IMG/VR virus record: IMGVR_UViG_2541047899_000011
DNA: 35,999 bases
Source of the DNA: a virus
Lineage: Duplodnaviria > Heunggongvirae > Uroviricota > Caudoviricetes
Strand: one strand, 5' to 3'
Shown: positions 6,171-30,216 of the stretch, in pieces
Layout of the letters: every line of letters starts with the position of its first letter
How positions within the stretch are numbered: position 1 is the stretch's first letter
Program-made: the position numbers and the translations under genes
The notes under the pieces: generated by a model
Seen by the model: the letters and a program-made list of their open reading frames with translations, nothing else
Told to the model about the DNA's origin: nothing
Database searches by the model: none

Positions 6171-6172
6171 CG

Positions 6173-6806: not shown

Positions 6807-6810
6807 AACG

Positions 6811-7160: not shown

Positions 7161-7172
7161 AGGAGGTACCAG

Positions 7173-8813: not shown

Positions 8814-8818
8814 AGAAT

Positions 8819-8846
8819 CAGCCCCTGCCTTGCAGGGGCTTTTTTG
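8819..8846 (+). terminator. intrinsic terminator after gemA
   Basis: 8-bp GC stem GCCCCTGC/GCAGGGGC (8821-8828 / 8832-8839) followed by TTTTTT (8840-8845). Confidence 0.7.
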
Positions 8847-8851
8847 TGGTC

Positions 8852-8879
8852 TGTACAGGCGATCATGTATGGCTATAAT
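8852..8879 (+). promoter_or_regulatory. candidate sigma70-like promoter upstream of mor
   Basis: TGTACA (8852-8857), 16-nt spacer, TATAAT (8874-8879); about 30 nt upstream of the mor start. Confidence 0.35.
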
Positions 8880-8908
8880 AACAGTAAGTTACTACCGGAG
8901 ACGCCATC

Positions 8909-9376
8909 ATGCAGACCTTCAGTGAAACAGATCTTCGCGATGCGCAGGCACTGCTGCCCGATTCCGTGCAGCAACTGATTAGCGTGATTGGCTTCCCCGC
9001 CCTGACCCGGTTGATTCGTTCTTTTGGTGGCGTGACGTTAAGCGGTAAAACCGGCGTACACGCCGGACGCACCGGCGGTGTCCATGCCCTGTTACATGAT
9101 GTGCTGACCGAAGACGAAATCAACAAACTGATCCGCTTTCTTGGCGGTGCACCGTTTTACATTCCCCGTTGTGATCATGCGTTACGTGCCCTGCGTAACA
9201 CCCGTTTTATGGCTGATTTACAGCAGCATGTAAAAGACGGATGCTCACACCGGCAGGCGCTGGCACTACTCTGTCCCCGTTACGGGATTTCAGACCGGTA
9301 TGCATGGCAACTGATACACCGACGACAAAAACAGACTTCGCTGAAAAGCCCCACCCAGGTGGGGCTTTTTGATTAA
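8909..9376 (+). CDS. mor: Mor/C-family transcriptional activator
   Basis: 155 aa; C-terminal region with GGAPFYIPR and an HTH-like segment typical of Mu Mor/C; follows gemA. Confidence 0.75.
   Translation: MQTFSETDLRDAQALLPDSVQQLISVIGFPALTRLIRSFGGVTLSGKTGVHAGRTGGVHALLHDVLTEDEINKLIRFLGGAPFYIPRCDHALRALRNTRFMADLQQHVKDGCSHRQALALLCPRYGISDRYAWQLIHRRQKQTSLKSPTQVGLFD
9346..9371 (+). terminator. intrinsic terminator-like hairpin overlapping the 3' end of mor
   Basis: Stem GCCCCAC/GTGGGGC (9348-9354 / 9359-9365) then TTTTT (9366-9370); lies inside the last codons of mor. Confidence 0.55.
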
Positions 9377-9402
9377 TGGGCCTCAGAAAAAAGGAGACAC
9401 TT

Positions 9403-9681
9403 ATGACCAACTATACGGCACTTGGCGAGTATACGGCCTACTCAGAGCAGGCCCGGGATGCTGCCGGACGCCGCTTCGCTTATATGAAAAATCTGGCCAG
9501 CCAGCTAAACCGAATGGCCGAACAACCGGATATGGTTGTTCAGGAAGAAGCGTTGCAGTGTGCTATTGCTGACATCATCGCCAGCGAAAACGAGATGCGC
9601 GCAGCGATGGAAAAGGCGAACGCCTCTGCTCCGCTTTGTAATAAACCTCTTATTACGCCGGATTCCCTTTCCCGCTTCTGA
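9403..9681 (+). CDS. hypothetical protein (92 aa)
   Basis: ATG 9403 with AAGGAG 6 nt upstream; no Mor/C-like motif. Confidence 0.45.
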   Translation: MTNYTALGEYTAYSEQARDAAGRRFAYMKNLASQLNRMAEQPDMVVQEEALQCAIADIIASENEMRAAMEKANASAPLCNKPLITPDSLSRF

Positions 9682-9700
9682 TTTATCACCCCGCCGCTGC

Positions 9701-9718
9701 GGGGTGCTGAACTCCCCC
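9701..9718 (+). promoter_or_regulatory. late-leader motif copy 1 (GGGGTGCTGAACTCCCCC), upstream of lysis genes
   Basis: Shares GTGCTGAAC-CCC with the copies at 17862 and 29813; overlaps hairpin 9687-9706. Confidence 0.4.
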
Positions 9719-9863
9719 AGCAGTACCCACCATACCAGACCGTTTACCCTGTCCACTCAGACCACAAGGCACCTTAAGGGATAGCGCCCTGCAAAAGGCT
9801 TTTGTGCCTTTGACAGGGTGTTATTTACGGGCCGTCAGTGGCTCAGATTTACAGGAGAAACTC

Positions 9864-10256
9864 ATGTCTGAACCCTTATCAGGCGGCGGAGCTGTGGCAG
9901 TCACCATCGGTGGTGCCAGTGTGTTTGGCCTTCTCACCAATACCGATTTCGGGGTTGTGGTGGGCGCGTTTGCCGGGGCGCTTTTTGTTGTCACGCAGCA
10001 GAAAGAAATCCCGGTCTGGCGAATGGCTATCCACCTGCTCGTCGCGTTTGTGGTTGGCGTTCTGGGGGCTGGCGTGGCTGCGTCACTGATGCAGTGGCTG
10101 ACCCACTACAACGACAAGCCGCTCGATGCATTGTGTGCGGTCGGTGTCTCTGCTTTATCCATCAAGATACTGACTTTTCTTTATCAACAGGAAATTTCAT
10201 CGCTGTTCAGCCTGTTTTCCAGACTGCGCGGCGGAGGGGGCGGAAATGGAAAGTAG
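9864..10256 (+). CDS. multi-pass membrane protein, holin candidate
   Basis: ATG with AGGAG upstream; 3-4 hydrophobic helices and a charged Gly-rich C-terminus; first gene of the lysis cassette. Confidence 0.5.
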   Translation: MSEPLSGGGAVAVTIGGASVFGLLTNTDFGVVVGAFAGALFVVTQQKEIPVWRMAIHLLVAFVVGVLGAGVAASLMQWLTHYNDKPLDALCAVGVSALSIKILTFLYQQEISSLFSLFSRLRGGGGGNGK

Positions 10257-10542
10257 CCTTGCCGGTATTGTGAACGTCTGGCTGTGTCTCGCCATTGTGC
10301 TGGGGTTGTTTATGTATCGCCGCCACGGCGCAGCGCATAAACCGATGATTACCTGGCTGGCGTACTGGCTGATGCTCGGTTACATCATCATCCCGTTCCG
10401 CTGGCTGTCCGGTACATACACGCACTCCAGCTGGCTGGTTGTGGCGCTGAATCTGGTTTTCTGTGCGCTTATCGTGTGGGCGCACGGGAATTTGTCAAAA
10501 ATCCTTTCGTTACTGAGGCATCCACATGAAATCAAAAGATAA
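10246..10542 (+). CDS. three-helix membrane protein, holin/antiholin candidate
   Basis: 98 aa with three hydrophobic segments; directly upstream of and overlapping the endolysin gene. Confidence 0.5.
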   Translation: MESSLAGIVNVWLCLAIVLGLFMYRRHGAAHKPMITWLAYWLMLGYIIIPFRWLSGTYTHSSWLVVALNLVFCALIVWAHGNLSKILSLLRHPHEIKR

Positions 10543-11071
10543 AATTTTTGATGAAGTCCTGGGCAAAGAAGGCGGTTACGTCAATCACCCGGATGATAAG
10601 GGCGGCCCGACCAAATGGGGCATTACGGAAAAAGTCGCCCGCGCCCACGGATACCGTGGCGATATGCGTGAGTTAACCCGCGAACAGGCGCTGGATATCC
10701 TTGAAGCCGATTACTGGTATGGCCCGCGATTTGACCAGGTCGCCGCATTATCCCCTGATATTGCCGCAGAGCTGTGTGATACCGGTGTGAATATGGGGCC
10801 AACCGTGGCGTCCAGAATGCTTCAGCGCTGGCTGAACGTTTTCAACCTGCGCGGCAGGCTGTACCCGGATATGGATACAGACGGACGCATCGGACCTCGC
10901 ACCATCAGTGCATTGCGCGCCTTCCTGAATAATCGCGGTCAGGACGGTGAGCGGGTGATGCTGACGGCCCTGAACTGCACGCAGGGTGACCGCTATCTGG
11001 AACTGGCAGAGAAACGCGAGGCTAACGAATCGTTTGTTTATGGCTGGCTGAAGGAGCGCGTGGCGGTATGA
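10526..11071 (+). CDS. endolysin, glycoside hydrolase 108-type with peptidoglycan-binding domain
   Basis: 181 aa; N-terminal EGGYVNHPDDKGGPTKWGIT motif characteristic of GH108 lysozymes; no N-terminal TM/SAR segment. Confidence 0.85.
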   Translation: MKSKDKIFDEVLGKEGGYVNHPDDKGGPTKWGITEKVARAHGYRGDMRELTREQALDILEADYWYGPRFDQVAALSPDIAAELCDTGVNMGPTVASRMLQRWLNVFNLRGRLYPDMDTDGRIGPRTISALRAFLNNRGQDGERVMLTALNCTQGDRYLELAEKREANESFVYGWLKERVAV

Positions 11072-11250
11072 CGCGTCAGCACTGGACCCACAGAACGCCA
11101 CGTAAAGCCGCGCGCTGTGTTCTGGCCCTGTTTCTGATGATGTTGCTTCCGGTGGGATGCACAGACATTAACAGAGCGGGCCAGCTGTTTGACGCGGCGG
11201 CACAGGTCTGCCGGATTATTGACGGCATCCGGCAGTGTTCGCAGAACTGA
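11068..11250 (+). CDS. small lipoprotein, o-spanin (Rz1-like) candidate
   Basis: 60 aa; hydrophobic stretch ending LPVGC (lipobox-like), short Cys-containing mature part; ATGA overlap with the endolysin stop. Confidence 0.5.
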   Translation: MTRQHWTHRTPRKAARCVLALFLMMLLPVGCTDINRAGQLFDAAAQVCRIIDGIRQCSQN

Positions 11251-11270
11251 TTTTTTGAAGGTCTGACACA

Positions 11271-11477
11271 GTGAGCATTATCAGATTTACAGAATGCGCA
11301 GGCTCAGGGAGCACCAGCGCTGTCATGGTAGTCGCTGAACGCATCACCCATTTTTACCGTCAGTGTGGTGCATATGGTGGCACGATCATTGAGCTGGATA
11401 CCGGGAAAAACGTGTATGTTCTTGAAAATCCCGACGAAGTTAAATGCCTGATTGAACAGGCTCAGAAGGACACTTAA
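11271..11477 (+). CDS. hypothetical protein (68 aa)
   Basis: GTG start ORF between lysis and packaging genes. Confidence 0.4.
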   Translation: MSIIRFTECAGSGSTSAVMVVAERITHFYRQCGAYGGTIIELDTGKNVYVLENPDEVKCLIEQAQKDT

Positions 11478-11977
11478 TGGCGTGGTCACAGGATATCAGG
11501 GACAAAGTCCGTAACGGGTACATCTTTGACCAGCTTCCGCTGGATATCGTCGCCATGAAGTACGCCGTGCCGCACGACACCGCGCGGCGCTGGAAAACGC
11601 AGGCGATGAAAAACGGCGACGACTGGGACAAGCTGCGTGCCGCTCACGCGCTCGCCGGTGACGGGCTGGAAAGTGTCGCCCGCACCGTGCTTATCAGTCT
11701 GGTGGTGAAGTGTCAGACGACGCTTGAACGGCTGAACCAGAACCCGGACATCCCGCCGCAGGAGTCCGTCGAACTGCTGGCGAGTCTGTCTGACAGTCTC
11801 AGTAAGGCGGTGGCCAGCAGTAAAAAAATCCTGCCGGAAACCGACCGGCTCGCCACAGCACTGGAAGTGGTGCAGCGGCTCGGCGCGTTCATCAAGGAGC
11901 GTCACCCGGCACAGTATGCCGCGTTCCTTGAGGTGCTCGAAGGCTTCGCTAAAGAGCTTGAGGATAATTTCAGTTAA
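11477..11977 (+). CDS. DUF1804-like packaging protein (Mu gp27-like, putative small terminase)
   Basis: 166 aa; MAWSQDIRDKVRNGYIFDQLPL N-terminus is typical of the family preceding TerL in Mu-like phages. Confidence 0.7.
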   Translation: MAWSQDIRDKVRNGYIFDQLPLDIVAMKYAVPHDTARRWKTQAMKNGDDWDKLRAAHALAGDGLESVARTVLISLVVKCQTTLERLNQNPDIPPQESVELLASLSDSLSKAVASSKKILPETDRLATALEVVQRLGAFIKERHPAQYAAFLEVLEGFAKELEDNFS

Positions 11978-11983
11978 CCACAG

Positions 11984-12003
11984 CGGCCCGGTTTTCCGGG
12001 CCG
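11984..12003 (+). promoter_or_regulatory. GC-rich stem-loop between the DUF1804 gene and the methyltransferase
   Basis: CGGCCCGG tttt CCGGGCCG; no following T-tract. Confidence 0.4.
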
Positions 12004-12023
12004 TCTGATATTCGGGATTTGTA

Positions 12024-12764
12024 ATGCAAAAACAGATTATTGGTAACGCAACGTTGTATTGCGGTGATGTTCTTGATGTGCTGCCGGCGTTATCTGAACG
12101 TTTTGATGCCGTCATTACCGACCCGCCTTACAGCAGTGGTGGCACACACAAATCAGACCGCAGCATGGCCCCTTCGGACAAGTATGTCGGTCACACTCAG
12201 TATGCCGAGTTCACCGGCGATAACCGCGACCAGCGCAGCTGGGCGTTCTGGTGTTCCATGTGGATATCTCATGCATTGCACAGGCTGAATCCCGGCGGTT
12301 ATTTCATGGTGTTCAGTGACTGGCGACAACTACCGGCGCTTACCGATGCATTTCAGGCCGGTGGTGTGCTGTGGCGCGGTCTGGTTGTCTGGGATAAAAC
12401 GCAGGCTTCCCGTGCGCCACACACCGGCTATTTCCGGCATCAGGCCGAGTATGTGGTCTGGGGCAGCAACGGAAAACTCGACAAATGCCCGCACGGTGGC
12501 CCGTTCCCGGGTGTGATTACGCAGCGTGTCGTCCCGTCCGAAAAACTGCACATGACCGCAAAGCCGGTTCAGCTGATGGCCGAGCTGGTTAAACCGCTGG
12601 CACCGGATGCGCACGTTCTCGATCCGTTTATGGGAAGCGGGACAACCGCGCTTCCGGTTCTTGCCCGTGGCGGACGATTTACCGGCATTGAAATGACTAA
12701 CCAGTATTTTGATATCGCCTGCGCACGTCTCGAAAAAGCGCAGGCAGAAGCAGCGCAGGTGTGA
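12024..12764 (+). CDS. orphan DNA amino-methyltransferase (beta-class, N6-adenine or N4-cytosine)
   Basis: 246 aa; motif IV DPPY near the N-terminus (VITDPPYS) and motif I DPFMGSGTT near the C-terminus; no adjacent nuclease gene. Confidence 0.85.
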   Translation: MQKQIIGNATLYCGDVLDVLPALSERFDAVITDPPYSSGGTHKSDRSMAPSDKYVGHTQYAEFTGDNRDQRSWAFWCSMWISHALHRLNPGGYFMVFSDWRQLPALTDAFQAGGVLWRGLVVWDKTQASRAPHTGYFRHQAEYVVWGSNGKLDKCPHGGPFPGVITQRVVPSEKLHMTAKPVQLMAELVKPLAPDAHVLDPFMGSGTTALPVLARGGRFTGIEMTNQYFDIACARLEKAQAEAAQV

Positions 12765-12765
12765 C

Positions 12766-14406
12766 GTGGCAAAACGTAAACTTTCCATTAAAGAGTTTCA
12801 GAGAAGCTTACAGGAGTACATCGCCAACCTCCGCCAGACCATTGAGGCTGAATGTCTGGGGTTCGATGTTAACCCGCAGGCCACACAGGCCCGCCGGGCG
12901 GCAGTCTGCGACCCGGTGACGGGCTACGATTATTTTGTCGAAAACTATTTCCCGCACTACGTCCGCAACCCGGCAAAAAGCGAGCTGCATAAATACCTGT
13001 TCAGCCGTCTGCCACAGGTTGTGGCAAGCCCGGACCCGGAGAACGACGCCATCGCCGCCCCCCGTGGTGAAGCAAAATCCACGCTGGTGACTCAGTTGTT
13101 TACCCTGTGGACCATTATCCGGGCCATTAAACATTACCCGGTCATCATTATGGACAGTATCGACCAGGCTTATCCGATGCTGGAAGCCATCAAGGCTGAA
13201 CTGGAATTTAACCCCCGTTTAAAAAACGATTTCCCGGAAGTGTGCGGACAGGGGCGCGTCTGGCGTATGGGGACCATCGTCACGGCCAACAATATCAAGG
13301 TGACCGTTGCCGGTAGTGGTAAAAAACTGCGTGGTCTGCGCCACGGTCCGTACCGTCCTGACCTGGTCATCCTCGACGACATCGAGAACGACGAGATGGT
13401 GCGTAACCCGGAGCAGCGCGACAAGCTGCATGACTGGCTCACCAAAACCGTGATGCCGCTGGGCGAGGCTGGCGGTAAAACCGATATTATTTATATCGGG
13501 ACCATCCTGCATTACGACTCCGTACTGTCACGCACGCTGAATAACCCGATGTGGAAAACGGCCCGCTTTAAGGCTGTCATTCAGTGGCCTGCCAATATGA
13601 AGCTGTGGGACGAGTGGGAAGAACTCATCCGCAACAAACAGCCGGAAGCAGCAGAGGCACTTTACCGACAGAACGAAGCCGACATGCTCGCCGGGTCGGT
13701 GGTGTCATGGGCGGCGCGTCCCCTGCTGGCACTGATGAAAATCCGTGTCCGTGACGGTCATGACACCTTTGATTCTGAATACCAGAACGACCCGGTCAGC
13801 GGTGAAGATGCGCTGTTTGCTGGCTGCATTAAGTTCTGGGTTAACCGTCTTGATGAATGGGTGTTTTATGGTGCTGTTGACCCCAGTCTCGGGAAGAAAA
13901 ACAAAAACCGCGACCCGTCGGCCATTCTCGTGGGGGGCTTTAACCGCTTTACCGGCATTCTGGATGTGGTTGAAGCCGATATCCGCCGACGTCTGCCAAA
14001 CAAACTTATCGAAGACGTGATTAAGTATCAGCGGGAATACCACTGTCTGTGCTGGTCGTTTGAGTCCGTCCAGTTTCAGGAGTTTCTGCGTACCGTGCTG
14101 GTTGAGCGTTCGGCGGCGCTGGGCGTGCCGGTTCCGGCGCTGCCGGTCATCCCGCTGGAGGATAAAGCGCTGCGTATTGAGTCTCTTCAGCCGCATATGG
14201 CCAACGGCCTGATCCGCATCAGTCCGGCACATCAGACGCTGATTGACCAGCTACGCCACTACCCCAAAGCCGACCACGATGATGGCCCGGACTGTCTGCA
14301 CATGCTGTGGACGCTGGCGGTATCGCGCAGCGCAAAATTTCAGATTCACACCCCACGCAGCACCGGGCGTGACCGTGGCGGGCGTTTTGGTTCAGGAGGA
14401 TGGTAA
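12766..14406 (+). CDS. terminase large subunit (Mu gp28-like)
   Basis: About 546 aa from GTG 12766 (the ORF track extends to a TTG at 12709 that overlaps the methyltransferase); Walker-like AAPRGEAKST; position before portal. Confidence 0.85.
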   Translation: MAKRKLSIKEFQRSLQEYIANLRQTIEAECLGFDVNPQATQARRAAVCDPVTGYDYFVENYFPHYVRNPAKSELHKYLFSRLPQVVASPDPENDAIAAPRGEAKSTLVTQLFTLWTIIRAIKHYPVIIMDSIDQAYPMLEAIKAELEFNPRLKNDFPEVCGQGRVWRMGTIVTANNIKVTVAGSGKKLRGLRHGPYRPDLVILDDIENDEMVRNPEQRDKLHDWLTKTVMPLGEAGGKTDIIYIGTILHYDSVLSRTLNNPMWKTARFKAVIQWPANMKLWDEWEELIRNKQPEAAEALYRQNEADMLAGSVVSWAARPLLALMKIRVRDGHDTFDSEYQNDPVSGEDALFAGCIKFWVNRLDEWVFYGAVDPSLGKKNKNRDPSAILVGGFNRFTGILDVVEADIRRRLPNKLIEDVIKYQREYHCLCWSFESVQFQEFLRTVLVERSAALGVPVPALPVIPLEDKALRIESLQPHMANGLIRISPAHQTLIDQLRHYPKADHDDGPDCLHMLWTLAVSRSAKFQIHTPRSTGRDRGGRFGSGGW

Positions 14407-14409
14407 TTA

Positions 14410-16005
14410 ATGGCACAGCTTGTTGATATTTACGGACGCCCGCTGAAACGCGAGGCACTCAAAACCACGCAGACGGTCAGAGTGGCGGAACGGCTGCGCA
14501 TTTATCCCGACCACCCGTCCCGTGGTCTGAACATCAGAAAACTGCCGCGCATTCTGGAAGCTGCCGAACGCGGCTATCTTCCGGCGCAGGCGATGCTGTT
14601 TGCGGATATGGAAGAACGTGATGGCCATCTGTTCGCCGAGATGGAAAAGCGCAAAAAAGCGTTGCTGACGCTGGACTGGTCGGTGGAGCCGCCCCGCAAT
14701 GCCTCGAAGGCAGAAAAGGAGCTGGCCGCCGCCGTGGATGAATGGCTGCACGGTATCCCGGACATGGAGGACATCATCCTCAACGGGATGAGCAGTGTCG
14801 GTTACGGCTTCAGCTGTCAGGAAATCAACTGGGCGTTCGTGGATAAAACGTGGTTACCGGATGCGGTGACGCTGCGCCCGCATAACTGGTTTATTACCCT
14901 GCCGGAACACAATGACGAACTCCGGCTGGATGACGGCGGTCGCGGGGAAGACGGTAAGGACGGTTCCGCGCTGTGGCCGTTCGGCTGGCTGGTTCATCGT
15001 TATAACGCCCGGTCGGGATTTCTGGGTTCATCTGGCCTGTTCCGCGTACTGGTCTGGCCGTATCTGTTCAAAAACTTTGCGCTGCGTGATATGGCGGAGT
15101 TTCTGGAGATTTACGGCCTTCCGGCGCGCATTGCTTACTATGCACAGGGCACCAGTGACGAGGACCGGGACAACATTCTCGAAGCCCTGGTCAATCTGGG
15201 CCATGAAGCGGTGGCAGCCCTGCCGCAGGGTAACGAGATTGAGTTCAAGGAGGCCGCATCCGGCGGGCCGGAGGCGTTCATGTCGATGGTGGAATGGGCG
15301 GAGCGCACCACCTCAAAAGTGATTCTGGGCAGTACGCTGACCAGCCAGGCTGACGGTAAAACCTCCACCAACGCGCTGGGTAATGTGCATAACGAGGTCC
15401 GGCACGACATTCTGGCCGCCGATGCGCGCCAGCTGTCCGGCATGTTCAGCAGCCTGATACAGATGATGGCCAGCCTGAACGGCTGGCAGGATATCCCGCC
15501 ACGCCGTCTGCCGCGACTGGTGTTTGATGTGCAGCAGGAAGCCGACATTAAGGGCGTGGCGGAAGCCGTCAGCGTGCTGGTCAACAATGTGGGAATGAAG
15601 GATATCCCGGTGTCGTGGGTACGCAAAAAAACCGGTATCCCCACCCCGAAAGACGGCGAAGAGGTACTGGTGCCGGTGGCACAGCGTCTCCCTGTGCAGG
15701 CGGGCCTCAGCCAGCTGCGTGAGCGGCTGAATGTTGTTGCACTCAGTCAGCAGGACAACGGGGAGGACGACCCGGCACAGCGCGCCATCGACCGGGCAGA
15801 GCTTCCGGCAGAGGCCATCGCGCAGGGGATGAACGAACTGGTGGCCCCACTGGTGCAGGCCATACAGGAAGGCCGGGATGCAGACGAGGCCATGAACGTA
15901 CTGGCGGAAGCCTGGCCGGAGCTGCCGGATGACACGCTGCGGCAGTTGCTGACGCAGGCATTCTTTGTGGCGGATATCTGGGGGCGACTGAATGCCGACA
16001 GCTGA
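14410..16005 (+). CDS. portal protein (Mu gp29-like, DUF935)
   Basis: 531 aa; size, position and MAQLVDIYGRP...RIYPDHPSRGL N-terminus typical of Mu-like portal. Confidence 0.85.
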   Translation: MAQLVDIYGRPLKREALKTTQTVRVAERLRIYPDHPSRGLNIRKLPRILEAAERGYLPAQAMLFADMEERDGHLFAEMEKRKKALLTLDWSVEPPRNASKAEKELAAAVDEWLHGIPDMEDIILNGMSSVGYGFSCQEINWAFVDKTWLPDAVTLRPHNWFITLPEHNDELRLDDGGRGEDGKDGSALWPFGWLVHRYNARSGFLGSSGLFRVLVWPYLFKNFALRDMAEFLEIYGLPARIAYYAQGTSDEDRDNILEALVNLGHEAVAALPQGNEIEFKEAASGGPEAFMSMVEWAERTTSKVILGSTLTSQADGKTSTNALGNVHNEVRHDILAADARQLSGMFSSLIQMMASLNGWQDIPPRRLPRLVFDVQQEADIKGVAEAVSVLVNNVGMKDIPVSWVRKKTGIPTPKDGEEVLVPVAQRLPVQAGLSQLRERLNVVALSQQDNGEDDPAQRAIDRAELPAEAIAQGMNELVAPLVQAIQEGRDADEAMNVLAEAWPELPDDTLRQLLTQAFFVADIWGRLNADS

Positions 16006-17158
16006 CGATGTTGACCTGGGTTATGCGTACACCCTGAAACCGGAAGAAGCGATTAAGTATTTCGAAAGCAAGGGATACGTTATCGGCTTCCGCTGGCACG
16101 ATGTGAAGGACATCGCACACGCCCGGGCGTTCACGGTGGCGGGCGTGCTGAAACTGGATGTGCTGAAGGATATCCGTGATGGCCTGACGGCGGCACTGGC
16201 TGACGGCGGGACGTTCCGGGAGTTTGCTGCACAACTGGAGCCGTTACTGGAGAAAAAAGGCTGGCTGGGTAAACGGCTGATTGTGGACGAGGACACCGGC
16301 GAACTGCACGGCAGACAGCTGACGCCGCGCCGGTTGCGTACGATATTTGATACCAATATTCAGTCGTCATACAACGCCGGACGTTATCAGCAGCAGATGG
16401 CGAACGTGGCTGACCGGCCTTATTTTGAGCGCGTGGCAGTGATGGACCTTCACACACGCCCGAAACACGCCGCCCTGAACGGCTTTACCGCCCGGGCGGA
16501 TGACCCGGTCTGGGAGTATTTCTACGCGCCTGACGGGTACGGATGCCGCTGCCGTATCCGGGCGCGTTCGGCGTCTGATGTGGAGAAATATGGCCTGACG
16601 GTGCAGAGCAGCGAGGGGCGACTGGTTGAGGTTGAACAGGAATATGGCCAGCCGGGCCAGACCATCAGAACAATGGGGCTGAAGATGCCGGACGGTTCCG
16701 TGTATACCGCCGACCCGGGCTTCGGATTTAATCCCGGTCGGGTGGCATGGCAGCCGGAACTGGAAAAATACGATTACCGCAGCGCCCGCCAGTATGTCAC
16801 CGGCACCCTGACCGGGCCGGATTTTGCCCGGGGACTGGCGAACGTCAGCGAACTGGATGCGCGCCAGCGATATCCGCTGGCCATCCGTTCACCGGAACAG
16901 GTCGCCGCCACGGGGGCCGCACGGCAGACGGTAAACCTTACGGCTGACGTTATGAAGCGCCTCAGTGCAACAGACACGCCCCCGACCGCCGCCGACTATG
17001 TGCTGATGCAGCAGACCATCGAACGGGCGGAGCATGTCACGCAGGACGGCAACGCGTGGCGGTATGCGTTACAGTCTGGCGACCGCTGGTCAGTGGCGAC
17101 GGTTGAGGATGACGTGCTGACAGACTGGGTTATGCAGGACACCCCGGAGGCATCATGA
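15992..17158 (+). CDS. head morphogenesis protein (Mu F-like, gp30)
   Basis: 388 aa following portal; Mu F-like family by sequence and order. Confidence 0.8.
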   Translation: MPTADDVDLGYAYTLKPEEAIKYFESKGYVIGFRWHDVKDIAHARAFTVAGVLKLDVLKDIRDGLTAALADGGTFREFAAQLEPLLEKKGWLGKRLIVDEDTGELHGRQLTPRRLRTIFDTNIQSSYNAGRYQQQMANVADRPYFERVAVMDLHTRPKHAALNGFTARADDPVWEYFYAPDGYGCRCRIRARSASDVEKYGLTVQSSEGRLVEVEQEYGQPGQTIRTMGLKMPDGSVYTADPGFGFNPGRVAWQPELEKYDYRSARQYVTGTLTGPDFARGLANVSELDARQRYPLAIRSPEQVAATGAARQTVNLTADVMKRLSATDTPPTAADYVLMQQTIERAEHVTQDGNAWRYALQSGDRWSVATVEDDVLTDWVMQDTPEAS

Positions 17159-17706
17159 GCGGCGGCAAACTGGATATTAAGATTGATTTAAGCGCGTATA
17201 ACACCACGCTGGGGAAACTGATTCGTTCCGTGAAGGACCGGCGCGACCTGATGACGGCACTTGCAGGCTCCATGCTGGATGCGGTTGAGACTAACTTTGA
17301 ACAACAGGGTCGCCCGAAATGGATGGGCTGGAGTCCGGCTTATGCGAAGCGACGCGGCCCCGGGCAAATCCTCCAGAAGTCCGGGCGACTGGCTGCCAGT
17401 ATCCGCTCTGCGGTTAACAATAACGAGGCCACGGTCGGGACAAACGTCCGTTACGCCCGTATCCACAACGAAGGCGGCGAAATCCGCCATCAGGCACGGA
17501 CGCAGAACCTGTATTTTAAACAGTACAAAAACGGCAGCGTCAGCACCCGCTTTGTGAAAAAGCGCAACAGTAACTTTGTGCAGAGCGCAACGGTCGGAGC
17601 GTATACGGTCAACATGCCCGCGCGTCCCTTCCTTCAGCTTGTGCAGGACGACATCGACGAGCTGGAGAACACTGCAAACCGCTATTTTGCGCGTGTGATT
17701 GACTGA
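17155..17706 (+). CDS. virion morphogenesis protein (Mu G-like)
   Basis: 183 aa; follows the F-like gene; conserved Mu order. Confidence 0.75.
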   Translation: MSGGKLDIKIDLSAYNTTLGKLIRSVKDRRDLMTALAGSMLDAVETNFEQQGRPKWMGWSPAYAKRRGPGQILQKSGRLAASIRSAVNNNEATVGTNVRYARIHNEGGEIRHQARTQNLYFKQYKNGSVSTRFVKKRNSNFVQSATVGAYTVNMPARPFLQLVQDDIDELENTANRYFARVID

Positions 17707-17798
17707 GTGGCCAGAAACGCGCTGTAATCGCCTTTGACGACATAAACGCCTCACGGATGAGGCATTACAGCACCGCATCCCATAAATGCCGTCAGAAT

Positions 17799-17823
17799 CG
17801 TTTTTAAAAGGGTTTTAAAAACG
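17799..17823. repeat. AT-rich 25-bp palindrome CGTTTTTAAAA-GGG-TTTTAAAAACG
   Basis: Perfect 11-bp inverted arms separated by GGG, in the G-I intergenic region about 40 nt upstream of motif copy 2. Confidence 0.75.
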
Positions 17824-17859
17824 GTTTTATTTCCCATTTTATCCTTTCGCGTTATGGCA

Positions 17860-17876
17860 GGGTGCTGAACACCCTC
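17860..17876 (+). promoter_or_regulatory. late-leader motif copy 2 (GGGTGCTGAACACCCTC), upstream of the I gene
   Basis: 15/15 identity with copy 3 over GTGCTGAACACCCTC; small GGGTG-ctgaa-CACCC hairpin. Confidence 0.4.
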
Positions 17877-17906
17877 CACAGTACCCCGTGTTCCCCTTCC
17901 GTCATC

Positions 17907-19049
17907 ATGCCGCGTATGAAGATGAACATTGCGGCGTTAAGCCTCGAAATTACTAAAGCAACCCACAGCGAAATCCAGCTGTTTCCGGCGGGCGAGTTCA
18001 GTGCTGTGGATGGTCGCCCACATACCGATGAAGTCGAAAGCGGTAAATGGGTGCTGACCGCTGAACTGGCCGCGCAGCTTGTCGCACAGGTGGCAGCCCG
18101 TGCCACGCCTTTTGTCATTGATTACGAACATCAGACGCTGCGCGCCGTAAACAACGGCAAGCCCGCCCCGGCGGCGGGCTGGTTCAGCCAGGTGGAATGG
18201 CGAGAAGGTGCGGGCCTGTATGCCACCGGTGTGGAGTGGACGGATAACGCGGCGGCCATGATTGCCGCCGGTGAGTACAAGTTTATTTCCCCTGTTTTTG
18301 CCTACAACAAGCGCGGCGAAGTGCTGGAGCTGTTACACGCCGCACTGACCAATACCCCTGCGCTCGACGGTATGGATGCGGTCATGCTGGCTGCGGCCAG
18401 CCGTCTGGCGAGTCTGTCAACTGAAACGGAGACCACAACGGTGGATGAAGAACTGTTAAACGATTTGCTGTCCAGTCTGCGCTGGATGCTTAACCTCCCG
18501 GTTACCTCAACGGCGGAAGATATTAAAAGCGAGCTGCAAAAGGTCGTTGACATGATTTCGAACGGTCAGGGAACGGCGGCGGCATCCGTCAGCCTGCTGG
18601 CCCTGCTGAATCAGAAAGACGAGCAAATCGCCAGCCTGTCAGCAAATGCCTATGACCCGACGAAGCATATCCCTCTGACGGCATATGAAGAACTTCAGGG
18701 ACGTTATGCCGTACTGGCGCAACAGTCCGGTGAAGCCGAAGCCGGGGCACTGATTCAGGCGGCGCTGTCTGACGGGCGGCTGCTTCCGACGCTGGAAGAC
18801 TGGGCGAAAGATTACGCTCGTCGCGATATCAACGGTTTTAAAACCTGGCTGGATAAAACCACCCCGCTTGCCGCACTCAGTAGCACCCAGACCGGCGGCA
18901 AACCACCCAAAACGCCGTCACCGGCCCCGGCGCAGATTAAAACCGGCGATGACGTCGATGTCGATATCGCCATTTGTTCCATGATGGGCACTGATCCAGA
19001 GGATATCGCCCGTTATGCAGGAAACGACTATTACGCAGGAGATGAGTAA
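17907..19049 (+). CDS. head protease/scaffold protein (Mu I-like)
   Basis: About 380 aa; QLFPAGEF...DYEHQT motifs typical of Mu I; start uncertain (GTG 17862, ATG 17907, 17919 or 17925). Confidence 0.8.
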   Translation: MPRMKMNIAALSLEITKATHSEIQLFPAGEFSAVDGRPHTDEVESGKWVLTAELAAQLVAQVAARATPFVIDYEHQTLRAVNNGKPAPAAGWFSQVEWREGAGLYATGVEWTDNAAAMIAAGEYKFISPVFAYNKRGEVLELLHAALTNTPALDGMDAVMLAAASRLASLSTETETTTVDEELLNDLLSSLRWMLNLPVTSTAEDIKSELQKVVDMISNGQGTAAASVSLLALLNQKDEQIASLSANAYDPTKHIPLTAYEELQGRYAVLAQQSGEAEAGALIQAALSDGRLLPTLEDWAKDYARRDINGFKTWLDKTTPLAALSSTQTGGKPPKTPSPAPAQIKTGDDVDVDIAICSMMGTDPEDIARYAGNDYYAGDE

Positions 19050-19445
19050 ATGGATCGCAATACCCCCTACCGTGACGGCGAGCTGAACCCGGTGCCGGTT
19101 GCCGCTGCGACCGAAATTTTTGGTGGTCATATGGTGGCCGTTAACGCATCCGGTTATGCCGTTCCGGCCAGTGCCACGGCCTCACAGATTACGCTGGGCG
19201 TGTCTGATGGCTGGGCGGATAACAGTACCGGCAGCGATGGCGATGTCACCGTTCTGGTGCGTTGCGGCAAAGATTTTCTGATGGTGAACAGCACCTCAGA
19301 CCCGGTCACACAATCGCAGGTCGGCAAGCTGTGCTACGTGGAAGACAGCGTGACCGTGGCAAAAACCGACAACAGCAGCGCCCGTCCTGTCGCAGGGAAA
19401 GTGATCGGCATCTGTGGCGATGGCGTCTGGGTTCATTTCAGTTAA
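19050..19445 (+). CDS. small head-associated protein (decoration-like, tentative)
   Basis: 131 aa between the I and major capsid genes; Gly/Val-rich beta-type sequence. Confidence 0.5.
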   Translation: MDRNTPYRDGELNPVPVAAATEIFGGHMVAVNASGYAVPASATASQITLGVSDGWADNSTGSDGDVTVLVRCGKDFLMVNSTSDPVTQSQVGKLCYVEDSVTVAKTDNSSARPVAGKVIGICGDGVWVHFS

Positions 19446-19455
19446 GGAGCAAAAC

Positions 19456-20364
19456 GTGTTAGTCAACGTTAAAAACGTCAAACAGATTTTTATCAATCTG
19501 AAGGCCACCTTCCAGAAAGCCTTCGACCAGTCGCCAACTGACTGGCAGAAGGTGGCAATGGAAGTGCCATCAAACGGCAAGGAAAACGACTACAGCTGGT
19601 TAAGTCGTTTCCCGAAAATGCGCGAGTGGATTGGTGACAAGGTCGTCAAATCACTGGCGGCATTTAACTACACCATCCGTAACAAGGACTGGGAAGCCAC
19701 GGTTGAAGTCGATCGTAACGACATCGAGGACGACCAGATTATGGGCTATGCCCTTCAGGCGAAAGGAGCCGGACAGTCGGCAGCAGAGCTACCGGCAGAT
19801 ATTGTGGCGTCCCTTATCAGTAACGGTTTTACCAATCTCTGTTATGACGGTCAGCCGTTCTTTGATACCGACCACCTGGTCGCCGGTAAATCGGTGTCCA
19901 ACAAAGGCACCAAAAAACTCAAAGTTGGTTCGCTTGCCGAGGCGAAAGCCTCCTACGGTGCCGCCCGTACATCCATGCGCAGCCTGAAAGATGACGAAGG
20001 CGCATCCCTCAAAATTCGCCCGAATCTGATGGTTGTACCACCGGCGCTGGAAGATGACGCGAACTACCTGATGACCGCCGAGAAGTTCCCGGACGGTACG
20101 CCGAACCCGTACCGCAACACCGCCGACGTGCTGGTGATGCCGGAGCTGGCGTCGGATTCTGCGTGGTTCCTGTTTGACACCACCAAACCGGTGAAACCGC
20201 TGATTTATCAGCTGCGTAAAAAACCTGTTTTTGTGGAGCAGACGGACTACAACAGCGACAACGTGTTCAAGCGTAAGAAGTTCCTGTTTGGTGCCGAAGC
20301 GCGCTGTAACGGTGGTTACGGCTTCTGGCAGATGGCGTTTGGCTCTGACGGTACGGAGGAATAA
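19456..20364 (+). CDS. major capsid protein (Mu T-like)
   Basis: GTG 19456 lies 6 nt after AAGGAG; alternative upstream starts GTG 19414 / ATG 19420; sequence and position match the Mu major head subunit. Confidence 0.85.
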   Translation: MLVNVKNVKQIFINLKATFQKAFDQSPTDWQKVAMEVPSNGKENDYSWLSRFPKMREWIGDKVVKSLAAFNYTIRNKDWEATVEVDRNDIEDDQIMGYALQAKGAGQSAAELPADIVASLISNGFTNLCYDGQPFFDTDHLVAGKSVSNKGTKKLKVGSLAEAKASYGAARTSMRSLKDDEGASLKIRPNLMVVPPALEDDANYLMTAEKFPDGTPNPYRNTADVLVMPELASDSAWFLFDTTKPVKPLIYQLRKKPVFVEQTDYNSDNVFKRKKFLFGAEARCNGGYGFWQMAFGSDGTEE

Positions 20365-24355: not shown

Positions 24356-26618
24356 TTTCAAAGTTGGCATGACCCTGACTGCGAAGGACGAAGCCTCGCA
24401 GGTTCTGGAAAAGGGACAAAAACAGGTTATCAAAGCCACCGAAGGTGTAACAAAGGCAACCCGGAAGGCAGGCGCAGAGCAGAAGCGTACCGGGCAGGAA
24501 AGCATTAACAGCACGAAAAAGGCCGCAAAAGAGATACAGCGTGCCGCCCGTGCCCGGGAAACGCTCGGTATTCGTGCAGAACGCGAGATCCGGCGTGAAA
24601 TTTATCTGACGGTTGCCAGTTATAACCGTCTGGCCCGCGCCGGTTTTGAATCTGCGCAGGAGCAGGAGCGCGCCATGCAGGCCACCCGGGAAAAAGCCCG
24701 GGCACTCAAGCGTGAACTGGATGGCGTTACTCAGGCTCAGATGAAGATGGCGAAAACGCCTGTTATCCCTGAACGGGGGCGTTTTGCCCGTGCGGCTGCA
24801 TTTGGCGGGAATGCCGTGACAATAGGCGGTGGTATTGCAGCAGGTGCTGCCATTATGGCGCAGCCGGTCAAAAAGCAGATGAGCTACGAACGCCAGCTGG
24901 CAATGATGGCCAATACCGCCTTCAGTGATGGCGGTCTGGAGGGGCGCAGGGCTGGTCTTGAGCAGATGAAAAGCAGCATCCGTAACGCGGTGACCTATGG
25001 CGGCGGTACGAAAGAAGACGCAGCCGAAACGCTGGATGCCCTGCTGAAAGATGGCGGTATTTCATTTGAAACAGCCAGTAAGTGGCTGCCTGAACTGATG
25101 AAATACGCCACGGCTTCCGGTGCATCAGCGACAGACCTGGCTAATGTGATGCTTAAGGGTAAAAAGACCTTTGGATTCAGGGATGAAGATATTTCCACCG
25201 TTCTGAATATGGCGATTGCGGCAGGAAAAGAAGGCAGCTTTGAACTGAACGATATGGCCCGCTGGTTATCCCAACAAATGGGATCTGCGTCAGCTGCGGG
25301 AATGAAAGGCAAGGATGATTTCGTCAAGATTCTTGCACTGAATGAAGCCGCCGCCATCACGGCGGGAAGCAGTGATGAAGCAGGGAATAACGTGGTTAAC
25401 CTGCTGGCCAAACTGACCAGCCATGATATTGAAACTGCGGCAAAGAGCATTGATTACAACGGTAAAGGGATTGATTTTTCAGGTACGCTGACTGAAGCGC
25501 GCAAGCATGGACTGGATCCGATAGACGCGCTTTCCAGCCTGATAGATAAAATCGTTGCCAACGATAAACGCTATCAGGAGTTGCAAAAGAAACTGTCATC
25601 TGCCCGGGATAAAGGTGAACAGACGGCTGTTTACGATTCGATGGCAAAACTCCTTGAAGGCTTTGGTGTCGGGAAACTGGTTGCAGACCGTCAGGCGTTG
25701 ATGGCGTTGTTAGCCTACCGTAACAACCCGGAATACCGTAAGAAGGTTGAAGACGCGATTAATCAGCAACGTACCCTGCCGGAAGGCCAGCGCGCGGGGG
25801 ATGTTGATTTCAGATTCATATCCGGCCTCAATGACTTTAAAACCGAACAGGCTAAAAACACGCTTGAATTTTCACAAATGGACAGCGTGAAAAAGCTGGC
25901 TGATGCGTCCGGTGCTGTGGCCGATGCCATAAGCTGGGCGGGTGAAAAGTTCCCGGGACTGACCACGGCAGTGGTGGGTGCCACGACCGCCATTGAAGCG
26001 ATGACCGCAGCGGCCCTGACATGGGCCGGGATCAAAATCCTGACCGGGGGTAAACCCGGTGGCAAGGCTGGCGAGGTTGTCGGTGATGTCATTGAAAACA
26101 CGGTCAAAAAAGGCAAAGGATTTAAATTCCCCGGCATCGCCGGTGGCCTGCTTTCTTTCGGTGGCACCGTTACGGCACTGGCCACCGCAACCAGCCCGGA
26201 AGAAGACGCCGCCGTCGAAGGAAGCGAAGAACGCTGGAAACGCATCCGCGCCCGATATCCCCAGGAAATCATCGACGCCGCCCGCAAAAAATACCAGCCG
26301 TGGTGGCAGTTTGGGGAAGGCTATTCCACCGAAAACGAAGAATGGTTGAGGCGCTGGGAGGAAGACAGGAAAAAAGCCGCAGCTGATGCCCTGCCATCAC
26401 CGGCGCAGGTCAACAAAGCCGCCGGAAACACAACGCCTGAATCAGCATCAACGCAACCCGGACGCATCACCCAGCCGGAATACCTCACGCACTGGGGACC
26501 ACCTGCCAGCCCCATTAATTTCACCACACAACTGGTGCTCGATGGTCAGGTCGTGGCGGAAGCGGTGAATAAATACAACCTTCAGGACGGCAACAGAGGC
26601 ACGGGAGGAACTTACTGA
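24345..26618 (+). CDS. tail tape measure protein
   Basis: 757 aa, Ala/Gly-rich helical protein after the chaperone pair. Confidence 0.85.
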   Translation: MAGNFKVGMTLTAKDEASQVLEKGQKQVIKATEGVTKATRKAGAEQKRTGQESINSTKKAAKEIQRAARARETLGIRAEREIRREIYLTVASYNRLARAGFESAQEQERAMQATREKARALKRELDGVTQAQMKMAKTPVIPERGRFARAAAFGGNAVTIGGGIAAGAAIMAQPVKKQMSYERQLAMMANTAFSDGGLEGRRAGLEQMKSSIRNAVTYGGGTKEDAAETLDALLKDGGISFETASKWLPELMKYATASGASATDLANVMLKGKKTFGFRDEDISTVLNMAIAAGKEGSFELNDMARWLSQQMGSASAAGMKGKDDFVKILALNEAAAITAGSSDEAGNNVVNLLAKLTSHDIETAAKSIDYNGKGIDFSGTLTEARKHGLDPIDALSSLIDKIVANDKRYQELQKKLSSARDKGEQTAVYDSMAKLLEGFGVGKLVADRQALMALLAYRNNPEYRKKVEDAINQQRTLPEGQRAGDVDFRFISGLNDFKTEQAKNTLEFSQMDSVKKLADASGAVADAISWAGEKFPGLTTAVVGATTAIEAMTAAALTWAGIKILTGGKPGGKAGEVVGDVIENTVKKGKGFKFPGIAGGLLSFGGTVTALATATSPEEDAAVEGSEERWKRIRARYPQEIIDAARKKYQPWWQFGEGYSTENEEWLRRWEEDRKKAAADALPSPAQVNKAAGNTTPESASTQPGRITQPEYLTHWGPPASPINFTTQLVLDGQVVAEAVNKYNLQDGNRGTGGTY

Positions 26619-27967
26619 TGGGCTGGGCTGAAAACCTGCAAAACGCCTCCTTTCGTGGCGTGCAGTTTGATGTACTGAACACGGATGAACAAATTAGCCG
26701 CGACCATGCGGTCTATGAATACCCGTTTGTTGACGGGGCGGATTTGCACGACCTCGGGCGCAAGGCGCGACCGTTCCGCATGACGGCGTTCCTGTGGGGG
26801 GAGTATTACGAATATAAACTCGAAAAGCTGATCGCCGCCCTGGACGAAGGCGGCGATGGTGAGCTGATTCACCCGGTTTACGGCTCCGTACCATCGGTGA
26901 TTGTGACCGGCTACAGCATCCGCCATGACGCAGAAAGCCCGGACAGCTGCACCATCGACATGAGTTTTCTGGAGAACCGCACCGGCAGCGCGTTGTTCAG
27001 CACCCCGTTACCGGAGCTGTTTGCACAGCAGTTATTTGAAGAACTGGATAAGTTACTGGCACAGTTAAGCGAATTATTTGACGCTGTTACGGCCCCTTTA
27101 AAGACCATTAACAGCGTGATTAAAAAAATCCAGACAGTGCGCGCCACACTGGTAAATACCCTGCTGACGTTCAAAAGCGATTTTCTCTCATCCATCGACA
27201 ATATGATGTCGCTGGCCAGCGAACCCGGGAAATTTATTGGCGGGCTGGCAGAGGTGCTGGAAATCCACACGTCAGATGTCGGGCACGCGGTGCCGGTGCT
27301 GGAGCGTACTGATTCCGCCACCACGACCGGACTGACCGGGGAAGACAGCGTCGCCAGTTCTGCGACAGTGATGACCTGCTGGAATGAGGTGATGGCAGAT
27401 ATGGATGAGCTGGTCGCGCTGCCGGTCGCACTGGTCAGCGGTGATAAAACGCCGTCTGTGGCACTTCCGCCGGATGCGTCCGTGGAAGACGTGCAGGACG
27501 TGAAAGCGGCTTATGCGGTTCTGGCGGCCTCAGAGCTGGCCAGCGTGGCGACAGCGATACTGTCCGATGAAGCCCAGTCAGAACAGCTTATACCGGCGGA
27601 TATCGGGCGACTGGTCGGGGATGTGCGCACCCGCTTACAGGCAACTATCACGCTGTTCCGTGAACGCTATGAAGGCGAACGCGAACGGATAACCGAAACC
27701 GCATCACCGCTGGGGCTGATGTACCCGGAAATCATTCAGAGCATGAAGAACGTGGCGGCATCCGTGCAGGATGTCGGTCTGCTGGTTCTGTCACGCCGCC
27801 CACCGCTGACGCAGAAACAGGTGCAGGCGGACAGCTGTCTGCTGTTGCTGGCGTGGCAGTGGTACGGTGATTACAGCCGTGCGGCAGAGCTGCAACGTCT
27901 GAACCCGCAGCTGCGTGACCCGAACAACATAACCGCCGGGATGGTGATTAATGCCTATGCAAAATAA
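26618..27967 (+). CDS. DNA circularisation protein N-like tail protein
   Basis: 449 aa; resembles the Mu N family; conserved position after the tape measure. Confidence 0.75.
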   Translation: MGWAENLQNASFRGVQFDVLNTDEQISRDHAVYEYPFVDGADLHDLGRKARPFRMTAFLWGEYYEYKLEKLIAALDEGGDGELIHPVYGSVPSVIVTGYSIRHDAESPDSCTIDMSFLENRTGSALFSTPLPELFAQQLFEELDKLLAQLSELFDAVTAPLKTINSVIKKIQTVRATLVNTLLTFKSDFLSSIDNMMSLASEPGKFIGGLAEVLEIHTSDVGHAVPVLERTDSATTTGLTGEDSVASSATVMTCWNEVMADMDELVALPVALVSGDKTPSVALPPDASVEDVQDVKAAYAVLAASELASVATAILSDEAQSEQLIPADIGRLVGDVRTRLQATITLFRERYEGERERITETASPLGLMYPEIIQSMKNVAASVQDVGLLVLSRRPPLTQKQVQADSCLLLLAWQWYGDYSRAAELQRLNPQLRDPNNITAGMVINAYAK

Positions 27968-29812: not shown

Positions 29813-29828
29813 GTGCTGAACACCCTCA
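29811..29828 (+). promoter_or_regulatory. late-leader motif copy 3 (AAGTGCTGAACACCCTCA), upstream of gp46-like baseplate gene
   Basis: Begins 1 nt after the gp45-like stop; about 45 nt upstream of the next start codon. Confidence 0.4.
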
Positions 29829-29865
29829 CCTGATTCTGACCTGCCCATGCTGCCAGACTGGCGGC

Positions 29866-30216
29866 ATGGACCAGACGATTTCACCTGCAACCGGCGACTA
29901 CGAACGCCGCCGGATTTATACACTCCATAACGCGGTTTATCTGCGACTGGCGACACCGCTTGGCAGTTACTGGGCGGATGCGTCGCTGGGGTCACGCCTG
30001 CACGAACTGAAGCGGGAAAAAGACGTTTCCCGTGTTCACAGGCTGGCGGCGCAGTATGCCAGCCAGGCACTTCAGCCCCTGCTTGATGACGGGCGGGCAA
30101 AATCCATTACCGTTGACACGAAAGCGGGCCAGCGCGGCTGGCTGTTGCTGTTAATCACCGTCACGGATAACGCGGGCACACCGCAGACGTTTGAACACCC
30201 TGTGAGGATTATGTAA
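29866..30216 (+). CDS. baseplate protein (Mu gp46-like, GPW/gp25 fold family)
   Basis: 116 aa preceding the J-like baseplate protein. Confidence 0.7.
   Translation: MDQTISPATGDYERRRIYTLHNAVYLRLATPLGSYWADASLGSRLHELKREKDVSRVHRLAAQYASQALQPLLDDGRAKSITVDTKAGQRGWLLLLITVTDNAGTPQTFEHPVRIM

Follow-up and report, generated by a model that had tools for sequence, protein, structure and literature searches.

Putative Mor/C-type late promoters marked by a repeated element in a Mu-like prophage of Escherichia coli

The C-dependent late promoters of phage Mu combine a 16-bp imperfect dyad centred at −43.5 with a recognisable −10 hexamer and lack a −35 hexamer (PMC2582627), and those of lys and I additionally match each other over 10 bp in the −35/spacer region (PMC4461284). 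In the present work, we analysed a window of 35,999 nucleotides, i.e. the whole stretch of viral DNA deposited as IMG/VR record IMGVR_UViG_2541047899_000011, which represents a Mu-like transposable prophage of E. coli and carries the 9-mer GTGCTGAAC at three sites ahead of late genes. Judged from sequence comparisons, these three (+) strand copies probably belong to activator-dependent late promoters of the Mor/C kind. The original prediction had offered two readings of the motif, namely the site of a Mor/C-type late-promoter activator or a shared 5′ leader structure. The former appears strongly supported by the recurrence of the motif in related phages, its fixed spacing to a downstream hexamer, a geometry like that of Mu C sites and flanking nucleotides that co-vary with the activator subfamily.

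A 401-bp probe around the motif matched 55 of 5426 complete E. coli genomes at 90–99% identity, EPEC E2348/69 being among those with a close copy of the prophage. In the annotated copy of strain B1172, the gene order is that of Mu: transposase A/B, early genes, GemA, one ‘Mor transcription activator family protein’, holins and endolysin are followed by terminase, portal, F, G, protease I, major head T, and the tail and baseplate genes. A megablast search with positions 8800–20000 against the phage collection returned no match, and the nearest named phage, found by protein search, was Klebsiella phage ST405-OXA48phi1.1 with 71% identity in the major head protein. Our comparative set comprised about 290 related loci in all, of which 80 surround homologues of the major head protein (57–99% amino acid identity) and 80 surround TerL homologues, with 48 further loci obtained via a DNA pattern, 80 from reference genomes and one from a named phage; gene I was used as a tblastn query from ATG 17916. 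In the open-access literature, we found neither the motif strings nor the late promoters of this phage group.

Counting both strands, GTGCTGAAC has four matches in the window compared with 0.35 expected, and none of 100 dinucleotide shuffles contained four or more. An exact search recovered the three (+) strand copies reported originally, at 9704–9712 (copy 1), 17862–17870 (copy 2) and 29813–29821 (copy 3). They lie in the gaps 9682–9863 ahead of the lysis genes, 17707–17915 ahead of head gene I and 29813–29865 ahead of gp46, all three being among the few intergenic gaps of the late region; on an approximate gene map, about 4.4% of the window is intergenic. The gap with copy 1 separates an ORF at 9403–9681 from the holin gene (ATG 9864), with the element equally placed in relatives, and the copy 3 element directly adjoins the TAA stop codon of gp45 (29810–29812). 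The similarities noted previously among the copies held as well: copies 2 and 3 are identical over 15 nt (GTGCTGAACACCCTC), copies 1 and 2 share CAGTACCC downstream at equal offset, and copy 3, if read as codons, meets a stop after six of them (GTG CTG AAC ACC CTC ACC TGA). The features discussed in the following are collected in Table 1.

Table 1. Positions of the motif copies and of neighbouring features in the window; promoter roles are predicted.
Feature	Position	Strand	Remarks
Mor/C-family activator gene (155 aa), proposed reader of the motif	8909..9376	+	Pfam Mor PF08765, E 2.4e-6, 28 bits (cut-off 24.9)
Copy 1 element, putative lysis-operon promoter, GTGCTGAACTCCCCCAGCAGTA	9704..9725	+	imperfect dyad GCTGA-N6-cCAGC
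−10-like hexamer TACCCT, putative lysis promoter	9745..9750	+	32 nt past CTGAAC
Copy 2 element, putative head-gene I promoter, GTGCTGAACACCCTCCACAGTA	17862..17883	+	CTGAAS placement in unique I-upstream regions
Weaker hairpin, I start codon with hexamer region	17900..17924	+	−9.2 kcal/mol, z −2.5
−10-like hexamer CATCAT, putative I promoter	17903..17908	+	ATG 17916 comes 7 nt later, predicted +1/+2
Fourth exact GTGCTGAAC	26995..27003	−	antisense within gene N (26618–27967)
Copy 3 element, putative promoter before gp46, GTGCTGAACACCCTCACCTGAT	29813..29834	+	CTGAAS placement in unique gp46-upstream regions
Hairpin CCATGCTGCCA-GAC-TGGCGGCATGG	29845..29869	+	hexamer at tip, gp46 AUG buried in 3′ arm; −19.9 kcal/mol, z −5.0
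−10-like hexamer CAGACT, putative gp46 promoter	29854..29859	+	A of ATG 29866 is the exact predicted +1

When related prophages were compared, the element proved to recur ahead of the lysis genes, I and gp46 in many of them, and the 9-mer turned out to be only part of it. The exact 9-mer is kept in close relatives only; distant ones carry, in the same three places and on the (+) strand only, an element of ~22 bp with the consensus ccaCTGAACcCCtTCAnCTGAt. Its conserved core consists of CTGAAC and a C/T-rich right part, so that the element extends ~13 bp further downstream than the 9-mer, and the leading GTG is a variable, subfamily-specific flank. Host genera with the element include Trabulsiella, Kosakonia, Pectobacterium, Serratia, Symbiopectobacterium and Halothiobacillus, and Klebsiella phage ST405-OXA48phi1.1 (L290, MK388859) bears it too. 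Upstream regions were also anchored on the start codons of I and gp46 and picked without reference to the motif. Of 73 unique I regions, 67 have CTGAAS at −50/−51 relative to the start codon; of 38 unique gp46 regions, 34 have it, at −50 in all but one (−52).

Downstream of the element comes a −10-like hexamer of the form yAnnnT, with T or C in position 1 and free variation in positions 3–5. A2 and T6 were present at all 67 unique I sites and all 34 unique gp46 sites, that is, at 101 of 101 sites chosen regardless of the hexamer. The spacing between CTGAAC and the hexamer was exactly 32 nt at 143 of the 148 sites with a hexamer nearby. Where CTGAAS was accompanied by right-half-like sequence, the hexamer followed in 125 of 143 instances on the (+) strand and in 0 of 19 on the (−) strand, the background being ~9%. 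Hexamer and 32-nt spacing recur, besides, at the lys sites and upstream of an activator gene, in a downstream context that is quite different. The window's own hexamers (TACCCT, CATCAT, CAGACT) are weak, and its −35 region reads CAGTAC or CCTGAT without any −35 hexamer. A scan for canonical sigma-70 promoters over 9300–18100 found none compared with 4.1 expected, and canonical scanning gave nothing at the three element sites. A sigma-70-like TTGACG-16-TAAAAT (10 of 12 matches; 29730–29757) was seen within the 3′-terminal part of gp45, some 55 nt ahead of copy 3, matches of this quality being at chance level there. An ECF-sigma-like reading (GAAC ... TCTGA) was rejected by inspection, as the two blocks are only 7 nt apart.

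If the hexamer occupies −12 to −7, GTGCTGAAC would lie at about −53 to −45. Since this geometry puts the motif upstream of the predicted transcription start, the motif would not be part of a leader. At the lysis promoter, the predicted start is ~9757, with a leader of ~107 nt to the holin ATG and a Shine-Dalgarno sequence AGGAG at 9853–9857.

Across the family, the element contains an imperfect dyad, CTGAA-N4-TTCAG nested in GCTGA-N6-TCAGC, with a distance of 31.5 bp from its centre down to the first base of the hexamer. The dyad is perfect in some clades (e.g. GCGCTGAACCCTCTCAGCCGC) and 69% complementary in the family compared with 12–37% in slid controls. Far better conserved than the right half, its left half is invariant and hence leaves no covariation to be seen; what the dyad reflects is conserved sequence rather than structure. 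The window's own copies match it at 3–4 of 8 positions per half, which is comparable with Mu Plys. In the Mu genome (NC_000929), the distance from dyad centre to hexamer is likewise 31.5 bp at Pmom, from TTATgccccaATAA to TAAGAT, and the same 31.5 bp apply to the right half-sites ACCATAAT (Plys) and AGCATAAC (PI) with respect to TAGACT and CAAACT, all three hexamers having been assigned by us. The I-type sites of some relatives (L042–L047, L054, L058 and others) contain a perfect direct repeat, CCACTGAA-N6-CCACTGAA, and the consensus can also be read as TGAA-N4-TTCA-N2-TGAA, i.e. as two overlapping dyads; a possible reason for these arrangements is that Mor and C of Mu are reported to bind as two dimers (A site/B site).

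Taken together, each promoter would consist of a ~22-bp element (xTG-CTGAAC-N-CC-N-TC...) with its dyad, a 32-nt spacer without a −35 hexamer and a weak −10 of the form yAnnnT, and GTGCTGAAC would be the promoter-distal part, or upstream half, of the activator-binding element at the three late promoters. A single Mor/C-family protein, encoded at 8909–9376, would be made from the early operon, occupy this element in dimeric or tetrameric form at a position that overlaps the −35 region, and recruit sigma-70 RNA polymerase to turn the late genes on. The predicted targets are the genes for lysis and packaging, those for the head from I on, and those for baseplate and fibres from gp46 on. The motif, its positions, the constant geometry, the −10 signature and the co-variation with the activator subfamily were observed; that the protein binds, that transcription depends on it and where transcription starts are what we infer from them. 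Against this reading stand the poor dyad of the window's own copies, the weak hexamers, the place of the third promoter ahead of gp46 and the lack of a mom-type site.

The proposed activator shares the linker FLGGxxFYIP with Mu C, and a jackhmmer search seeded with it retrieved Mu C at E 4.6e-15; its best PDB matches are to the Mu late activator C (9l0x and 9vw8), albeit weak ones (E 0.4). Neither Pfam nor the jackhmmer search found a second Mor-family protein in the window. Related phages differ in this respect and in the three nucleotides that precede CTGAAC. In the window clade, a single activator goes with GTG-CTGAAC sites, and in phages that we call type A, a single activator goes with CCA-CTGAAC. 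In type B phages, two Mor-family paralogues are arranged as Mor and C are in Mu; the site between their genes reads CCA-CTGAAC, and those at lys and I read (C/G)TG-CTGAAC. The window activator groups with paralogue 2 (45–54% identity, neighbour-joining bootstrap 199/200) and the type A activator with paralogue 1 (45% identity, 190/200); the trinucleotide, xTG or CCA, co-varies with the activator subfamily, a co-variation of protein and site that follows phylogeny. At loci whose Mor homologue is ≤37% identical to that of the window, the element is absent. This is the best available evidence, albeit indirect, that the product of 8909–9376 may read the motif, and it suggests that the GTG highlighted originally could be the specificity-determining part.

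Two further observations concern the activator genes of relatives. In type B loci L101–L113, L143 and L151 (~5500–7400), the hexamer of the site between the paralogues is AATACT and is followed at once by a terminator-like hairpin with a T-run; the predicted start lies inside the 5′ arm of this hairpin, so that transcripts from the promoter itself would escape the terminator. In ST405-OXA48phi1.1 (L290, MK388859), a Mor-family ORF in 8395–8790 is missing from the GenBank annotation.

This link between flank and activator also bears on whether the promoter-associated site might be read by a protein outside the Mor family, be it a factor of the host or a different phage protein, e.g. the product of ORF 9403–9681, an idea that we consider unlikely. 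That ORF sits between the Mor-family gene and copy 1 with no function assigned, and a dyad as weak as the present one fits many DNA-binding proteins. Yet the site shares its geometry with those of Mu C, the type of flank goes with the Mor-family subfamily (bootstrap values of 190–199/200), the element is absent from loci with the more divergent Mor homologues, as described above, and the site before the second paralogue in two-paralogue phages mirrors the cascade from Mor via Pm to C in Mu.

Under the Mor/C-type reading, the predicted +1 at CTGAAC+50 coincides with the A of the gp46 ATG at 29866 and lies 1 nt before the I ATG at 17916, which is also the protease start in the RefSeq annotation of a 98.5% identical copy. 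For gp46, the A of the ATG falls on CTGAAC+50 in 33 of 38 regions; for I, it does so in 20 of 73, and another 47, with that of the window among them, have it at +51. The gap between hexamer and ATG is 6–8 nt at the I and gp46 sites, and distant relatives without the CTGAAC motif still keep ‘yAnnnT + 6 nt + ATG’. No Shine-Dalgarno sequence was evident before the I and gp46 ATGs upon inspection of the aligned upstream regions. The simplest reading, which we hold with less confidence than that of the promoters, is that the I and gp46 mRNAs may be leaderless, starting at or 1 nt before the AUG. Caution is advised by the high demand for gpI and by the GTG found at the predicted gp46 +1 in some relatives, including ST405-OXA48phi1.1, whose annotated gp46 start is a GTG exactly at CTGAAG+50 (29800); both weigh against leaderless mRNAs. 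Leaderless GUG is translated poorly in E. coli.

The start-codon regions can, in addition, fold. In 31 distinct relatives, the gp46 hairpin (Table 1) has 91% of its cells paired compared with 27–48% in slid controls, and 5 of its 11 pairs change on both sides; in one clade, for instance, a change of the start codon from ATGG to GTGG is matched by one from CCAT to CCAC in the 5′ arm. There are 21 G.T cells as opposed to 8 A.C cells, a bias that favours (+) strand RNA as the folding species, and the AUG is fully paired in 26 of 28 sequences. The hairpin at I is variable, with the AUG at least two-thirds paired in 26 of 47 relatives and unpaired in 20 of 47. As for the lysis operon, the leader region (9745–9870) is strongly structured (−49.3 kcal/mol, z −3.8), and its outer stem pairs 9748–9752, upstream of the predicted start, with ACAGG of the Shine-Dalgarno region. 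The central part of this leader exists in two different versions among close relatives. Two other explanations of the gp46 hairpin were set aside: an RNase III site is unlikely, given a stem of only 11–12 bp, and so is a palindromic repressor operator, as the I and gp46 stems differ within one phage and the mismatches are G.T-biased.

One hypothesis is that the folds would silence read-through RNA by fold-back, rendering it untranslatable and leaving only activator-initiated RNA productive. That all three of these proposals hold jointly, i.e. leaderless I and gp46 mRNAs, hairpin-embedded late promoters that silence read-through translation, and a 3-nt code for Mor-like versus C-like specificity, we would put at somewhat less than an even chance.

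The same hairpins invite a different assignment of promoter parts, in which the conserved block itself is the core promoter, its second half (CTGAT, CTTAT, ATTAT or CAGTA) serving as the −10, transcription starting ~25–30 nt upstream of the I and gp46 AUGs, and yAnnnT merely forming the loop of a leader hairpin. In many relatives, the second half does resemble a degenerate −10 (e.g. CATTAT, ACTTAT), and the gp46 hairpin, clearly under selection and G.U-biased, demands the existence of an RNA with both arms. Read-through from the upstream operon already accounts for such an RNA, however, and the second-half hexamers are poorly conserved and usually lack the critical A2 (CTGATT, CTTATT). CTGAAC would, moreover, come to lie in the spacer, with nothing conserved at the activator or −35 position, whereas yAnnnT keeps A2, T6 and the 32-nt spacing at the lys and pre-activator sites, outside any hairpin loop. 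Because the same hexamer and spacing occur there in other contexts, the hexamer is more than a hairpin loop, and we regard this alternative as decidedly improbable.

Very little also speaks for the motif being an RNA element, that is, a 5′ leader hairpin with a CTGAA loop that acts as a stabiliser or in a boxB/nut-like manner and is transcribed from promoters farther upstream. The flanks of CTGAA had been proposed to pair in every copy. This is true of copy 2, in which six base pairs close a CTGAA pentaloop (−12.0 kcal/mol, z −2.4); the fold of copy 1 is weaker (−9.1 kcal/mol, z −1.6), and copy 3, with only 3 bp, is essentially unfolded (−0.7 kcal/mol, z −0.1). In the window clade, an extra palindrome, GGGTG-CTGAA-CACCC, occurs in two of the three sites and counts against the promoter reading, and lys and I sites often have arms of 5–7 bp. 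Over 111 distinct sites, however, 29.4% of the GGGTG/CACCC cells pair compared with 33.7% when slid by +1, and only one pair shows any double change; most relatives read CCA-CTGAA-CCCCT and are unable to pair. With the pairing missing in copy 3 and no better than in slid controls across relatives, the shared leader structure proposed originally finds no backing, and what is conserved is a sequence rigidly spaced to a downstream −10-like hexamer. An Rfam scan of the whole window matched no family.

The both-strand search called for in the original prediction returned, besides the three intergenic (+) copies, a fourth exact match that had gone unmentioned; it is located on the (−) strand inside a gene (Table 1). 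It lacks the C-rich right half and has no A2/T6 hexamer at +38. We treat this copy as a chance match outside the system. It recurs in most close relatives with loci covering gene N, all of them ≥90% identical in the neighbouring major-head protein, a recurrence that we attribute to N being coding sequence. One-mismatch variants of GTGCTGAAC are likewise more frequent in the window than expected (24 versus 9.7); those other than the exact copies lie within genes and in no case combine the C-rich right half with the downstream hexamer; this excess appears to be due to codon usage. Such coding-region matches are all that favours dismissing the repeats as a functionless product of chance or codon usage (GTG CTG AAC being a common Val-Leu-Asn string), a view with next to no chance of being right since the three (+) copies are non-coding, have up to 15 nt plus the hexamer distance in common and keep their positions across many genera.

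Other features lie close to the putative promoters. An AT-rich element, CGTTTTTAAAAGGGTTTTAAAAACGGTT (17799–17826), is unique in the window; in relatives, 70 of 76 unique I-type sites have a matching element upstream. In Mu, the strong gyrase site is annotated in the equivalent gap between G and I, and CGTTTTTAAAAGGGTTTTAAAAACGGTT is probably its counterpart by analogy of position. GC-rich hairpins without T-runs were found past the stop codons of upstream genes, namely CCCCGCcgctGCGGGG (9689–9704), which adjoins copy 1, and GCCTCAcggaTGAGGC (17748–17763) after gene G; these are possible transcript ends or barriers.

The present analysis outlines the late-operon structure of a Mu-like prophage family that is widespread in Enterobacterales and fixes the start codons of I and gp46. 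It also yields more than 100 natural variants of a putative Mor/C-type activator site, paired with diverged activators, and two paralogous activator subfamilies that are apparently told apart by a 3-nt flank. With complexes of Mor and C with RNA polymerase now solved, these variants are material for understanding how the Mor/C family reads DNA, and they could give rise to orthogonal activator/promoter pairs. Should the leaderless and fold-back proposals be true, late structural genes of an enterobacterial phage would need no leader for their translation and would be shielded from read-through, which is unusual for E. coli phages.

Several described systems resemble parts of this arrangement. 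The late promoters of P2 and P4 are sigma-70 promoters that depend on a phage activator (the zinc-finger proteins Ogr or Delta) and carry a dyad, TGT-N12-ACA, near −55, upstream of a missing −35. They have in common with the window a phage-encoded activator (a predicted one in our case), sigma-70, an upstream dyad and the lack of a −35 hexamer, but the activator families differ, and an Ogr-type dyad was rejected for the window as sequence and position both differ. Like lambda cI expressed from PRM, which is leaderless, the window's I and gp46 have the A of their start codon 7–8 nt past the last base of the −10 and no Shine-Dalgarno sequence; unlike cI, they are late structural genes (protease/scaffold I and baseplate gp46), their promoters are predicted to depend on an activator, and their transcription starts are predicted.

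In the fold-back inhibition of read-through transcripts in IS10 and IS50, the 5′ arm of an inverted repeat precedes the start site used by the element itself, the 3′ arm covers the translation start, and only transcripts from the proper promoter would be translatable. A similar layout of the arms appears robust at gp46 given the predicted start and variable at I, and at lys the outer stem touches the Shine-Dalgarno sequence. The context differs from IS10/IS50 in being a junction of phage late operons, with a function that we deduce from structure, covariation and the predicted start.

The closest parallels are found in Mu itself. In Mu and, as predicted, in the window, the dyad is positioned at −43.5 with a −10 present and a −35 absent, promoters head the lysis and head-gene (I) operons with another one inside the tail/baseplate genes, and a gene for a Mor/C-family activator lies just upstream of the first late promoter. 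The extra match between the lys and I promoters in the −35/spacer region also has its equivalent, which is CAGTACCC in the window. The recognition sequences are different, CTGAAC.CC.TC(A) in the window as opposed to half-sites of the TTAT-N6-ATAA type in Mu, and the window activator is only ~21–30% identical to Mu C and Mor. A third promoter is predicted ahead of gp46 in the window but lies ahead of P (gp44) in Mu, and a fourth site of the mom type is absent from the window, the late operon heads of Mu being lys, I, P and mom. Whereas the I leader of Mu, as read from NC_000929, has ~26 nt and a Shine-Dalgarno sequence, I and gp46 of the window have neither a leader, as predicted, nor a Shine-Dalgarno sequence. 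With regard to the Mor-activated promoter Pm, the CCA-CTGAAC site and −10 before the second paralogue of two-paralogue relatives are the positional equivalent of Pm driving C. Compared with Mu, the middle and late sites of these relatives have the CTGAAC core in common and differ mainly in the preceding 3 nt. This step is missing in the window phage, which has one activator where Mu has two and no site upstream of its gene. In kind, then, the elements described here would be ordinary Mu-type activator-dependent late promoters; what sets them apart from those of Mu is their recognition sequence, the gp46 position of the third promoter, a cascade with a single activator and the leaderless layout.
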